Of a stretch of DNA of 4,019 nucleotides, positions 1 to 4,019 are shown piece after piece. How positions within the stretch are numbered: the first letter of the stretch is position 1; every line of letters begins with the position of its first letter. The stretch lies in IMG/VR virus record IMGVR_UViG_2657245634_000018. The stretch is one strand, 5' to 3'. Both the position numbers and the translations under genes were made by a program. This stretch comes from a virus (lineage: Duplodnaviria; Heunggongvirae; Uroviricota; Caudoviricetes). Below the pieces are notes generated by a model. That model saw only the letters and a program-made list of their open reading frames with translations. It was not told the origin of the DNA and searched no databases.

Positions 1-159
1 GTAATCAGCAAGCGATATACGCAGCGAATTGAGCGGCATAACCTGAATCTGAGGCAGCACCTGGCACGGCTGGGACGGAAGTCGCTGTCGTTCTCAAAAT
101 CGGTGGAGCTGCATGACAAAGTCATCGGGCATTATCTGAACATAAAACACTATCAATAA
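1..159 (+). CDS. insB: IS1 transposase InsB, C-terminal fragment (5' end outside window)
   Basis: Open frame from the window edge to TAA at 157-159. The stop lies inside the terminal inverted repeat, as in IS1. Absent from the ORF track because it has no start in the window. Confidence 0.85.
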
Positions 160-174
160 GTTGGAGTCATTACC
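152..174. repeat. IS1 terminal inverted repeat (right end), 23 bp
   Basis: Direct match by eye to the IS1 terminal repeat; insertion junction at 174/175. Confidence 0.85.
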
Positions 175-459
175 CACAGTGTTATCGTTTTCTAACACAA
201 TGTGAATATTATCTGTGGCTAGATAGTAAATATAATGTGAGACATTGTGACGTTTTAGTTCAGAATAAAACAATTCACAGTTTAAATCTTTTCGCACTTG
301 ATCGAATATTTCTTTAAAAATGGCAACCTGAGCCATTGGTAAAACCTTCCATGTGATACGAGGGCGCGTAGTTTGCATTATCGTTTTTATCGTTTCAATC
401 TGGTCTGACCTCTTTGTGTTTTGTTGATGATTTATGTCAAATATTAGGAATGTTTTCAA
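175..459 (-). pseudogene. Phage right-arm ORF interrupted by IS1 (95 native codons fused to 26 IS1-derived codons; ORF-track entry 94..459)
   Basis: The minus-strand ORF crosses the IS1 junction: its last 26 residues ([26 protein letters not shown]) are the reverse-frame reading of the IS1 terminal repeat, so its 3' part is not native. Position matches a lambda right-arm ORF that I recall being annotated as a putative envelope protein; that identity is from memory. The track start is TTG with no Shine-Dalgarno; an internal ATG (residue 42) has GGAAGG 8 nt upstream, so the true start is uncertain. Confidence 0.5.
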
Positions 460-621
460 TTAATAGTATTGGTTGCGTAACAAAGTGCGGTCCTGCTGGC
501 ATTCTGGAGGGAAATACAACCGACAGATGTATGTAAGGCCAACGTGCTCAAATCTTCATACAGAAAGATTTGAAGTAATATTTTAACCGCTAGATGAAGA
601 GCAAGCGCATGGAGCGACAAA

Positions 622-828
622 ATGAATAAAGAACAATCTGCTGATGATCCCTCCGTGGATCTGATTCGTGTAAAAAATATGCTTAATAGCACCATTTCTA
701 TGAGTTACCCTGATGTTGTAATTGCATGTATAGAACATAAGGTGTCTCTGGAAGCATTCAGGGCAATTGAGGCAGCGTTGGTGAAGCACGATAATAATAT
801 GAAGGATTATTCCCTGGTGGTTGACTGA
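622..828 (+). CDS. Small hypothetical protein (68 aa) of the lambdoid right arm
   Basis: ATG at 622 preceded by GGAG (611-614) at 7-nt spacing; TGA stop at 826-828. Size and position match a 68-aa hypothetical ORF in the lambda right arm, as I recall it. Function unknown. Confidence 0.6.
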
Positions 829-992
829 TCACCATAACTGCTAATCATTCAAACTACTTAACCTGTGACAGAGCCAACACGCAGTCTGTCACTGTCAGGA
901 AAGTGGTAAAACTGCAACTCAATTACTGCAATGCCCTCGTAATTAAGTGAATTTACAATATCGTCCTGTTCGGAGGGAAGAACGCGGGATGT

Positions 993-1187
993 TCATTCTT
1001 CATCACTTTTAATTGATGTATATGCTCTCTTTTCTGACGTTAGCCTCCGACGGCAGGCTTCAATGACCCAGGCTGAGAAATTCCCGGACCCTTTTTGATC
1101 AAGAGCGATGTTAATTTGTTCAATCATTTGGTTAGGAAAGCGGATGTTGCGGGTTGTTGTTCTGCGGGTTCTGTTCTTCGTTGACAT
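993..1187 (-). CDS. Small hypothetical protein (64 aa), possible ribbon-helix-helix (Arc/MetJ-like) DNA-binding fold
   Basis: Complete ORF, ATG at 1187-1185 and TGA at 995-993. Basic N-terminal arm (STKNRTRRTTTRN) followed by a strand-helix-helix pattern (RNIRFP / NQMIEQINIALDQKG / SGNFSAWVIEACRRRL) like Arc-type repressors. Weak Shine-Dalgarno. Coding status not proven: the N-terminal codons overlap an imperfect 15-bp tandem DNA repeat (1148-1177). Confidence 0.5.
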   Translation of the reverse strand: MSTKNRTRRTTTRNIRFPNQMIEQINIALDQKGSGNFSAWVIEACRRRLTSEKRAYTSIKSDEE

Positions 1188-1356
1188 GAGGTTGCCCCGT
1201 ATTCAGTGTCGCTGATTTGTATTGTCTGAAGTTGTTTTTACGTTAAGTTGATGCGGATCAATTAATACGATACCTGCGTCATAATTGATTATTTGACGTG
1301 GTTTGATGGCGTAGATGCACGTTGTGACATGTAGATGATAATTATTATCATTTTGC

Positions 1357-1363
1357 GGGTCCT
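1357..1363 (+). promoter_or_regulatory. cosQ-like element (GGGTCCT) upstream of cosN
   Basis: Heptamer gggtcct lies about 24-30 bp to the left of the cohesive-end sequence, where cosQ sits in lambda. Exact boundaries are from memory. Confidence 0.4.
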
Positions 1364-1386
1364 TTCCGGCGATCCGACAGGTTACG

Positions 1387-1398
1387 GGGCGGCGACCT
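1387..1398. other. cosN: 12-nt cohesive-end sequence GGGCGGCGACCT (terminase nicking site; junction of phage right and left ends)
   Basis: Exact lambda-type cohesive end, preceded by ...gatccgacaggttacg (right-end type) and followed by cgcgggttttcgctatttatgaaaattttccgg (left-end type). Confidence 0.87.
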
Positions 1399-1440
1399 CG
1401 CGGGTTTTCGCTATTTATGAAAATTTTCCGGTTTAAGGTG

Positions 1441-1456
1441 TTTCCGTTCTTCTTCG
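1441..1456 (+). promoter_or_regulatory. cosB R3 element (Nu1 binding site)
   Basis: tttccgttcttcttcg is related to the R-element repeat found at 1495-1510 and 1536-1551, at the expected distance from cosN. Confidence 0.6.
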
Positions 1457-1457
1457 T

Positions 1458-1492
1458 CGTAACTTAATGTTTTTATTTAAAACACCCTCTAA
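1458..1492. promoter_or_regulatory. cosB I1 segment (AT-rich IHF bend site between R3 and R2)
   Basis: AT-rich tract aacttaatgtttttatttaaaa between R3 and R2 with a partial IHF-consensus match on the reverse strand; boundaries approximate. Confidence 0.45.
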
Positions 1493-1494
1493 AA

Positions 1495-1510
1495 AGAAAG
1501 GAAACGACAG
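1495..1510 (-). promoter_or_regulatory. cosB R2 element (Nu1 binding site, inverted relative to R1)
   Basis: agaaaggaaacgacag is the perfect reverse complement of the 16-mer at 1536-1551. Confidence 0.72.
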
Positions 1511-1535
1511 GTGCTGAAAACGGGCTTTTTGGCTT

Positions 1536-1551
1536 CTGTCGTTTCCTTTCT
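1536..1551 (+). promoter_or_regulatory. cosB R1 element (Nu1 binding site)
   Basis: ctgtcgtttcctttct; forms a 16-bp perfect inverted repeat with R2, directly upstream of the Nu1 start. Confidence 0.72.
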
Positions 1552-1575
1552 CTGTTTTTGTCCGTGGAATGAACA

Positions 1576-2121
1576 ATGGAAGTCAACAAAAAGCAGCTGG
1601 CTGACATTTTCGGCGCGAGTATCCGTACCATTCAGAACTGGCAGGAGCAGGGAATGCCCGTTCTGCGAGGCGGTGGGAAGGGTAATGAGGTGCTTTATGA
1701 CTCTGCCGCCGTCATAAAATGGTATGCCGAAAGGGATGCTAAAATTGAGAACGAAAAGCTGCGCCGGGAGGTTGAAGAACTGCGACAGGCCAGCGAGACA
1801 GATCTCCAGCCAGGGACTATTGAGTACGAACGCCATCGACTTACGCGTGCGCAGGCCGACGCACAGGAGCTGAAAAATGCCAGAGACTCCGCTGAAGTGG
1901 TGGAAACCGCATTCTGTTCTTTCGTGCTGTCGCGGATCGCAGGTGAAATTGCCAGTATTCTCGACGGGATCCCCCTGTCGGTGCAGCGGCGTTTTCCGGA
2001 ACTGGAAAACCGACATGTTGATTTCCTGAAACGGGATATCATCAAAGCCATGAACAAAGCAGCCGCGCTGGATGAACTGATACCGGGGTTGCTGAGTGAA
2101 TATATCGAACAGTCAGGTTAA
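1576..2121 (+). CDS. nu1: Terminase small subunit gpNu1 (181 aa)
   Basis: ORF-track protein MEVNKKQLADIFGASIRTIQNWQEQGMPVLRGGGKGNEV... is near-identical to lambda Nu1 as I recall it (about 4 substitutions in 181 aa). N-terminal helix-turn-helix segment; lies directly downstream of cosB. Confidence 0.97.
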   Translation: MEVNKKQLADIFGASIRTIQNWQEQGMPVLRGGGKGNEVLYDSAAVIKWYAERDAKIENEKLRREVEELRQASETDLQPGTIEYERHRLTRAQADAQELKNARDSAEVVETAFCSFVLSRIAGEIASILDGIPLSVQRRFPELENRHVDFLKRDIIKAMNKAAALDELIPGLLSEYIEQSG

Positions 2122-4019
2122 CAGGCTGCGGCATTTTGTCCGCGCCGGGCTTCGCTCACTCTTCAGGCCGGAGCCACAGACTGCCGTTGAATGGGCGGAT
2201 GCTAATTACTATCTCCCGAAAGAATCCGCATACCAGGAAGGGCGCTGGGAAACACTGCCCTTTCAGCGGGCCATCATGAATGCGATGGGCAGCGACTACA
2301 TCCGCGAGGTGAATGTGGTGAAGTCTGCCCGTGTTGGTTATTCCAAAATGCTGTTGGGTGTTTATGCCTACTTCATAGAGCATAAGCAGCGCAACACCCT
2401 TATCTGGTTGCCGACGGATGGTGATGCCGAGAACTTTATGAAAACCCACGTTGAGCCGACTATTCGTGATATTCCGTCGCTGCTGGCGCTGGCCCCGTGG
2501 TATGGCAAAAAGCACCGGGATAACACGCTCACCATGAAGCGTTTTACCAATGGTCGTGGCTTCTGGTGCCTGGGCGGTAAAGCGGCAAAAAACTACCGTG
2601 AAAAGTCGGTGGATGTGGCGGGTTATGATGAACTTGCTGCCTTTGATGATGATATTGAACAGGAAGGCTCTCCGACGTTCCTGGGCGATAAGCGTATTGA
2701 AGGCTCGGTCTGGCCAAAGTCCATCCGTGGCTCCACGCCCAAAGTGAGAGGCACCTGCCAGATTGAGCGTGCAGCCAGTGAATCCCCGCATTTTATGCGT
2801 TTTCATGTTACCTGCCCGCACTGCGGGGAGGAGCAGTACCTTAAATTTGGCGATAAAGAGACGCCGTTTGGCCTCAAATGGACGCCGGATGATCCCTCCA
2901 GCGTGTTTTATCTCTGCGAGCATAATGCCTGCGTCATCCGCCAGCAGGAGCTGGACTTTACTGATGCCCGTTATATCTGCGAAAAGACCGGGATCTGGAC
3001 CCGTGATGGCATTCTCTGGTTTTCGTCATCCGGTGAAGAGATTGAGCCGCCTGACAGTGTGACCTTTCACATCTGGACAGCGTACAGCCCGTTCACCACC
3101 TGGGTGCAGATTGTCAAAGACTGGATGAAAACGAAAGGGGATACGGGAAAACGTAAAACCTTCGTGAACACCACGCTCGGTGAGACGTGGGAAGCGAAAA
3201 TCGGCGAACGTCCGGATGCTGAAGTGATGGCAGAGCGGAAAGAGCATTATTCAGCGCCCGTTCCCGACCGTGTGGCTTACCTGACCGCCGGTATCGACTC
3301 CCAGCTGGACCGCTACGAAATGCGCGTATGGGGATGGGGGCCGGGTGAGGAAAGCTGGCTGATTGACCGGCAGATTATTATGGGCCGCCACGATGATGAA
3401 CAGACGCTGCTGCGTGTGGATGAGGCCATCAATAAAACCTATACCCGCCGGAATGGTGCAGAAATGTCGGTATCCCGTATCTGCTGGGATATTGGCGGGA
3501 TTGACCCGACTATTGTGTATGAACGCTCGAAAAAGCATGGGCTGTTCCGGGTGATCCCCATTAAAGGGGCATCCGTCTACGGAAAGCCGGTGGCCAGCAT
3601 GCCACGTAAGCGAAACAAAAACGGGGTTTACCTTACCGAAATCGGTACGGATACCGCGAAAGAGCAGATTTATAACCGCTTCACACTGACGCCGGAAGGG
3701 GATGAACCGCTTCCCGGTGCCGTTCACTTCCCGAATAACCCGGATATTTTTGATCTGACCGAAGCGCAGCAGCTGACTGCTGAAGAGCAGGTCGAAAAAT
3801 GGGTGGATGGCAGGAAAAAAATACTGTGGGACAGCAAAAAGCGACGCAATGAGGCACTCGACTGCTTCGTTTATGCGCTGGCGGCGCTGCGCATCAGTAT
3901 TTCGCGCTGGCAGCTGGATCTTAGTGCACTGCTGGCGAGCCTGCAGGAAGAGGANNGNGNANCANGGTGTCATCGTCTGCGTCGCATGTTAAGGTCAGGC
4001 CCACAGTATAAAAGAGAAC
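2096..4019 (+). CDS. A: Terminase large subunit gpA (stop not reached in window; lambda-type similarity ends near 3965)
   Basis: GTG at 2096, 26 nt before the Nu1 stop, opens a frame reading (M)NISNSQVNRLRHFVRAGLRSLFRPEPQTAVEWADANYYLPKES... (hand-translated) and remaining open to 4019. Frame checked at 2096, 2813 and 3941. Carries the lysine-containing segment VKSARVGYSKM near residue 76. Not in the ORF track because it has no stop in the window. About 620 lambda-like codons, then the anomalous tail. Confidence 0.93.
   Translation, partial: MNISNSQVNRLRHFVRAGLRSLFRPEPQTAVEWADANYYLPKESAYQEGRWETLPFQRAIMNAMGSDYIREVNVVKSARVGYSKMLLGVYAYFIEHKQRNTLIWLPTDGDAENFMKTHVEPTIRDIPSLLALAPWYGKKHRDNTLTMKRFTNGRGFWCLGGKAAKNYREKSVDVAGYDELAAFDDDIEQEGSPTFLGDKRIEGSVWPKSIRGSTPKVRGTCQIERAASESPHFMRFHVTCPHCGEEQYLKFGDKETPFGLKWTPDDPSSVFYLCEHNACVIRQQELDFTDARYICEKTGIWTRDGILWFSSSGEEIEPPDSVTFHIWTAYSPFTTWVQIVKDWMKTKGDTGKRKTFVNTTLGETWEAKIGERPDAEVMAERKEHYSAPVPDRVAYLTAGIDSQLDRYEMRVWGWGPGEESWLIDRQIIMGRHDDEQTLLRVDEAINKTYTRRNGAEMSVSRICWDIGGIDPTIVYERSKKHGLFRVIPIKGASVYGKPVASMPRKRNKNGVYLTEIGTDTAKEQIYNRFTLTPEGDEPLPGAVHFPNNPDIFDLTEAQQLTAEEQVEKWVDGRKKILWDSKKRRNEALDCFVYALAALRISISRWQLDLSALLASLQEEXXXXXCHRLRRMLRSGPQYKRE
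3955..3965. other. Cluster of six ambiguous base calls (N) at the point where lambda-type similarity ends
   Basis: N at 3955, 3956, 3958, 3960, 3962 and 3965. The interleaved called bases (g, g, a, c, a) agree with the lambda A sequence I recall; from 3966 onward (ggtgtcatcgtctgcgtcgcatgttaagg...) the sequence does not. Confidence 0.8.

Follow-up and report, generated by a model that had tools for sequence, protein, structure and literature searches.

A lambda-type terminase gene with an aberrant 3' end in a draft Escherichia coli prophage contig is probably the product of a chimeric join

The closest described counterpart of the locus considered here is the cos-Nu1-A region of phage lambda. 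The terminase subunit gpA of lambda reportedly ends in a segment of about 30 residues that binds the prohead. Cryptic lambdoid prophages with truncated terminase pseudogenes exist as well; E. coli K-12 offers an example in nohD/aaaD of its prophage DLP12. The DNA analysed here, a stretch of 4019 nt that is termed the window in the following, has the standard cos-Nu1-A layout of lambda at positions 1387-3954, with a DNA identity of 98.1%. It differs from lambda at the very end of A: the contig has Ns and host DNA in place of the final 22 codons (DGAATNKKTLADYARALSGEDE) and the stop codon, whereas these are intact in the closest relatives.

The window is an entire draft contig (CCBW01000299.1 of assembly GCA_000939035.1); the reverse complement of the contig equals the window exactly. 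The contig starts within a repeat, an IS1 element whose copies occupy thousands of places in E. coli genomes, and ends 54 nt past the odd junction. In BLAST searches of the window against phage records and complete E. coli genomes, the lambda-type match was limited to positions 175-3954. Over this part, the window shares 98.1% identity with lambda and 100% with a prophage in E. coli O111:H21 strain 15A. Past ybcV, the gene content corresponds to the standard boundary of a lambdoid late region, which consists of ybcW, ylcI, cosN, Nu1 and A. A character scan of all 4019 bases identified exactly six characters other than A, C, G and T, namely Ns at positions 3955, 3956, 3958, 3960, 3962, and 3965. 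The features of the window are compiled in Table 1.

Table 1. Features of the window. Positions are those of the window; L001 is a K-12-derived genome, 15A is the strain with the counterpart prophage, and L003 and L004 are two sister assemblies described in the text.
Feature	Position	Strand	Evidence and remarks
IS1, terminal 174 nt	1-174	+	InsB C-terminus at 1-159 including stop, then terminal inverted repeat; Pfam DDE_Tnp_IS1, E = 6.7e-27
ybcV' (DUF1398), first 54 codons, interrupted by IS1	175-336	-	Pfam DUF1398; ybcV intact in 15A
cosN cohesive-end sequence GGGCGGCGACCT	1387-1398	+	Single exact match; chance expectation 0.02
Nu1 / nohD, terminase small subunit, 181 aa	1576-2121	+	Pfam Phage_Nu1, E = 4e-100; 15A annotation
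Lambda-type terminase large subunit gene A, codons 1-619 plus two bases	2096-3954	+	GpA_ATPase and GpA_nuclease; 100% identical to 15A, L003 and L004
Conflict zone of 11 nt, N N g N g N a N c a N	3955-3965		Overlay of A and yhbQ; sister assemblies read TGGTGCAGCAA
yhbQ, first 8 nt, ATG at 3973-3971	3966-3973	-	100% match to L001 3001-3008; yhbQ CDS is L001 2706-3008, minus strand
yhbQ-yhbP intergenic spacer	3974-4019		100% match to L001 3009-3054; yhbP starts at L001 3059

The N-terminal part of A (window 2096-3952) is recognized in Pfam by PF05876 (GpA_ATPase, E=1.7e-50) and PF20454 (GpA_nuclease, E=9.8e-74). Its start at position 2096 overlaps the end of Nu1 at 2121, and cosN is located upstream, which is the sequence context of a lambda-type gpA. 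Up to position 3954, A can be regarded as a genuine and ordinary lambda-type gene. The frame at 2096-4018 comprises 619 intact lambda-type codons up to ...LASLQEE, followed by five ambiguous codons and by CHRLRRMLRSGPQYKRE. The original prediction, which was made from the letters of the window, had described a gpA that is lambda-like for about 620 codons up to the same motif, six Ns interleaved with called bases that still fit lambda, a last stretch of 54 bp from position 3966 that is unrelated to the 3' end of A, and an A frame that stays open to the edge of the window. All of this was borne out. The five called bases are those of lambda-type A, 44 of the 54 bases from 3966 onward differ from the expected 3' end, and no stop codon occurs up to the edge. 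The chance of finding 17 codons free of stops is about 0.44; the open frame through the tail is fortuitous. Missing from the window are the C-terminal prohead-binding tail of gpA (...EEDGAATNKKTLADYARALSGEDE) and the stop codon that overlaps the start of W; Ns and yhbQ DNA are found instead.

Relatives of the window were identified by means of its IS1 insertion. The element interrupts ybcV after codon 54 and thereby creates a unique chimeric ORF of 80 aa, which consists of YbcV residues 1-54 and an IS1 read-through (window 336 to 94). This ORF served as a lineage marker in an exact-sequence look-up. It is on record in only three contigs, which are CCBW01000299.1, CDRY01000326.1 and a 17.5-kb contig of GCA_969827725.1. 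The identical insertion occurs in none of the 5426 complete E. coli genomes, where the nearest cases are IS1 copies elsewhere near ybcV, and searches of genome-representative and viral contigs for the IS1::ybcV DNA junction gave no match. Given its rarity, the insertion is a useful clonal marker.

Two sister assemblies, L003 and L004, show no difference from the called bases of the window up to 3964; at the six N positions, both have T, G, T, C, G, and A. Past this zone, both continue into a normal 3' end of A (641 aa and stop codon) and into gpW, portal, protease, decoration, and capsid genes. The prohead-binding tail is present in both and identical to the 15A/lambda type. Downstream genes in the relatives with the IS1 marker are of lambda type (gpW, Phage_portal_2, S49 peptidase, HDPD, Phage_cap_E). 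Furthermore, the part that L003 and L004 share with 15A, which extends to window-equivalent position 5041, is 100% identical. The counterpart prophage of 15A adjoins icd and contains an intact ybcV and an A gene of 641 aa, followed by gpW, portal, and other head genes. L004, which is CDRY01000326.1 with a length of 5041 bp, starts at the same IS1 base as the window, 174 nt inside the element. This shared start suggests the same assembly pipeline and the same structure of the IS1 copy. L004 runs on for another 1076 nt, and only the window contig breaks at about 3955-3965. Judged from these sequences, the loss of the C-terminal tail of gpA would concern the record and, very probably, not the phage itself. 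Note that L003 and L004 are related assemblies that may stem from other isolates of the same clone; the state of the window's own isolate is not proven thereby.

In the relatives, the major capsid gene E is split or contains an internal stop (L003 1792-2817; L002 11346-11780; L006 22956-23981). This damage and the IS1 in ybcV suggest a defective prophage. In 15A (L006, NZ_CP077477.1 980000-1029000), the integrase side of the prophage abuts icd. On the tail-fibre side, it borders on a region that contains catalase and ferritin-like genes, a gene of the ompT type, and part of a tail-fibre-assembly gene; this flank may be a trace of recombination between two prophages.

The 54 bases of the window's tail are 100% identical to a core locus of E. 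coli, as represented by the K-12-derived genome: they comprise the first 8 nt of yhbQ in antisense orientation and the spacer between yhbQ and yhbP. The match ends 5 nt short of the yhbP start codon. This locus is present in 5056 of the 5426 complete E. coli genomes and is single-copy, with a median of one place per genome. No match to the tail was obtained in 50,697 phage records. Because of the perfect match to the yhbQ/yhbP core locus and the absence from phage records, the tail can be assigned to the host chromosome and not to an alternative terminase C-terminus.

Two consequences for annotation were observed at this site. By coincidence, the chimeric A frame comprises 641 codons up to the contig end, the same number as the 641 aa of authentic gpA. 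The authentic stop codon corresponds to window-equivalent positions 4019-4021, and a check of gene length would miss the anomaly. Moreover, a spurious ORF of 240 aa is located on the minus strand at window 3251-3973; it begins at the yhbQ ATG, runs antisense through the Ns into A, and might be output by gene-calling software.

In order to characterize the zone of Ns, lambda-type A and yhbQ, placed in register, were aligned side by side with the window. Across the 11 positions 3955-3965, A and yhbQ differ at eight and agree at three (3961 A, 3963 C, 3964 A). The Ns fall on disagreeing positions in six of six cases, and the agreeing positions are called in three of three. All called bases in the zone (3957 G, 3959 G, 3961 A, 3963 C, 3964 A) are those of lambda-type A; the remaining disagreeing positions 3957 and 3959 are thus both called with the A-type G. 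To the left of 3955 the contig follows A, and to the right of 3965 it follows yhbQ. The Ns are not placed at random, since all of them lie within 11 bases and exactly where the sequence changes from one origin to the other. Taken alone, Ns and disagreements are associated with no more than modest significance (C(8,6)/C(11,6) = 0.06), and no simple deterministic rule generates the pattern: the conflict is G versus A at 3956, 3957, and 3959 alike, yet the first of these is an N and the other two are called G. The pattern bears the signature of two sequences that were superimposed over about 11 nt, with conflicts written as N. Shifting yhbQ by +1 or -1 relative to A, which was done by hand, explains the called and N positions no better than the overlay in register. 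A third allele, namely a divergent A from another prophage, is an unlikely source of the Ns, which occupy codon positions 1, 2, and 3 and display no wobble pattern.

As to the cause, the original prediction had offered a consensus built over two different sequences (a collapsed join, a mixed population, or a structural variant) and, alternatively, a natural mosaic that changes the prohead-binding C-terminus. A consensus over two sequences, or a collapsed or false join, agrees with the data: the tail is yhbQ/yhbP DNA, each N is at a disagreement between A and yhbQ, and the sister assemblies resolve the Ns to lambda-type bases. The BLAST search proposed for the 54-bp tail, once run, led to chromosomal yhbQ/yhbP of E. 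coli, which is unrelated to phage. The outcome named as indicative of a local assembly artefact, namely Ns that resolve to lambda-type bases followed by an ordinary 3' end of A and a stop codon, was observed in L003 and L004; these are related assemblies and do not represent a resequencing of the same isolate.

The mosaic alternative did not withstand the comparison. It implies that the last ~22 gpA codons, which specify the prohead/portal-binding part, were swapped with a phage possessing a different head module. The A frame that is open to the window edge, and the prohead-binding role of the C-terminal ~30 residues of lambda gpA, would be in line with such a swap. However, the replacement consists of host chromosome, namely the yhbQ start codon in antisense orientation and the intergenic spacer, and occurs in none of the phage records searched. 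Moreover, 17 stop-free codons arise by chance about 44% of the time, and the relatives contain a lambda-type A end, W, and portal. Neither phage homology past the breakpoint nor recurrence in complete E. coli genomes, plasmids, viral contigs, species-representative genomes, and metagenome contigs was observed, and downstream head genes of a different type were not found in the relatives with the IS1 marker, on which, being outside the window, this point was judged. A mosaic C-terminus was therefore rejected, and its probability is practically negligible.

The junction between A and yhbQ was searched for in other collections. According to BLAST, none of the 5426 complete E. coli genomes has the two sides of the junction, A and yhbQ, together, and plasmid records gave no match to the junction. 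A pattern consisting of the A side, N{0,30}, and the yhbQ side retrieved nothing from viral contigs, GTDB species-representative genomes, and metagenome contigs. In E. coli O157:H7 PV15-279, the genome's own ybcV segment and the tail are located at 1.50 Mb and 4.14 Mb, on opposite strands and about 2.6 Mb apart. In each sequence-level respect that was tested, the junction resembles a misjoin: its sides map to distant, unlinked loci, for which PV15-279 is an example; the closest relatives L003 and L004 are without the join; and the ambiguous calls are exactly at the join and are explained by an overlay.

A junction with prophage on one side and chromosome on the other might also be expected at an attachment site, or at the end of a cryptic prophage that is truncated within A and abuts yhbQ as its neighbour. 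Truncated terminase genes exist in cryptic prophages such as DLP12 of K-12. However, A is located in the middle of a prophage and not at an att end, and the integrase end of the 15A prophage abuts icd. None of the 5426 complete E. coli genomes has prophage DNA beside this point of yhbQ in such an arrangement, the set of head genes is complete in the relatives that share the IS1 marker, and the Ns would be left unexplained. We consider such a prophage end very improbable.

The odd end of A is probably a chimeric join in the draft assembly, to which we ascribe a technical origin, and with high probability it is not a real biological feature. This explanation builds on what was observed directly, namely what the two sides are, where the Ns fall with respect to the disagreements, that the junction is absent elsewhere, and that A ends normally in the closest relatives. 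The underlying biology would be that of an ordinary lambda-type and probably defective prophage with an IS1 in ybcV and a full-length, ordinary A gene. The prophage contig may have ended near 3954-3965 at the stage of assembly, scaffolding, or consensus building. A piece of ~54-65 nt from the unrelated, single-copy yhbQ-yhbP locus would then have been joined to, or overlaid on, this end. Within the resulting superimposed zone of 11 nt, disagreeing positions would mostly have been turned into N, whereas agreeing positions would have been called. The specific step that we infer could be an overlap merge by a scaffolder, a new call of each base across a short gap of Ns, or a cross-link in the assembly graph that arose from a chimeric library fragment. 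The length of the tail is exactly 54 nt, which, speculatively, could be k-1 of a de Bruijn graph with k=55 or a single short read of 54 nt. The 174-nt IS1 end of the same contig fits no simple k-1 rule.

The technical origin has to be weighed against a join that was real in the sequenced culture. In this case, illegitimate recombination would have connected A at codon ~623 to yhbQ at codon 3 as part of a large inversion-type rearrangement, which was present clonally or in a subpopulation. The microhomology available is at most 2 nt (CA, 3963-3964), and the Ns would stem from reads of the rearranged and the unrearranged arrangement. A reciprocal junction would be predicted, in which the antisense 3' remainder of A, ...CCAGTGTTTTCTTGTTGG, leads into yhbQ at about codon 4, TTTCTTTACTTGATCCG.... 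A mixed population would naturally result in conflicting bases at the join, E. coli genomes rich in IS elements and prophages do rearrange, and the prophage flank in 15A, which is the closest complete genome, is unusual. As L004 with the same contig start runs on, something in the data of this isolate must have caused a break exactly at this point; this speaks against an artefact, and a real sub-clonal variant would have the same effect.

On the other hand, the junction occurs in no other genome or contig collection that was searched, and the arrangement is normal in the relatives that share the IS1 marker. An end of the contig in single-copy DNA, 54 nt beyond the join, fits an artefact, since a clean clonal junction should assemble on into yhbP. 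Likewise, the Ns are confined to the A side of the join; they therefore fit the overlay of a short piece and not a symmetric conflict of reads. Finally, A and icd share one strand in 15A. Based on this orientation, on the strands of the tail and of ybcV in PV15-279, and on the location of yhbQ at ~2 Mb from icd on the K-12 map, a real join would probably need an inversion of ~2 Mb that includes the terminus asymmetrically. An inversion of this kind would be expected to be counter-selected. We therefore regard a real join as unlikely; if true, it would represent one private chromosomal rearrangement of minor general interest.

With a technical chimera as the preferred explanation, the main value of the case is one of caution. 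The contig would mislead annotation by presenting a "terminase" of 641 codons with a foreign C-terminus and a spurious antisense ORF of 240 aa, and automated scans could misread it as a phage mosaic or as a phage-host junction. Given the host-core tail and the normal gene in the clone-mates, the feature was removed from the list of candidate novelties.

Compared to known systems, the window shares its gene neighbourhood (ybcV, ybcW, ylcI, nohD, and a homologue of A) with cryptic prophages of the DLP12 type, and its prophage is probably defective, too. In real cryptic prophages, however, a truncation is a clean junction that is conserved across strains and continuous with the flank. In contrast, the junction in the window is unique, contains Ns, and ends after 54 nt. 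The junction also resembles misjoins in short-read drafts. The interleaved pattern of Ns and called bases seen here is less common than the plain run of Ns. The other properties are the same: the join is missing from close relatives and from all other collections searched, loci that are far apart in finished genomes are connected, and Ns mark the join near the end of a contig.
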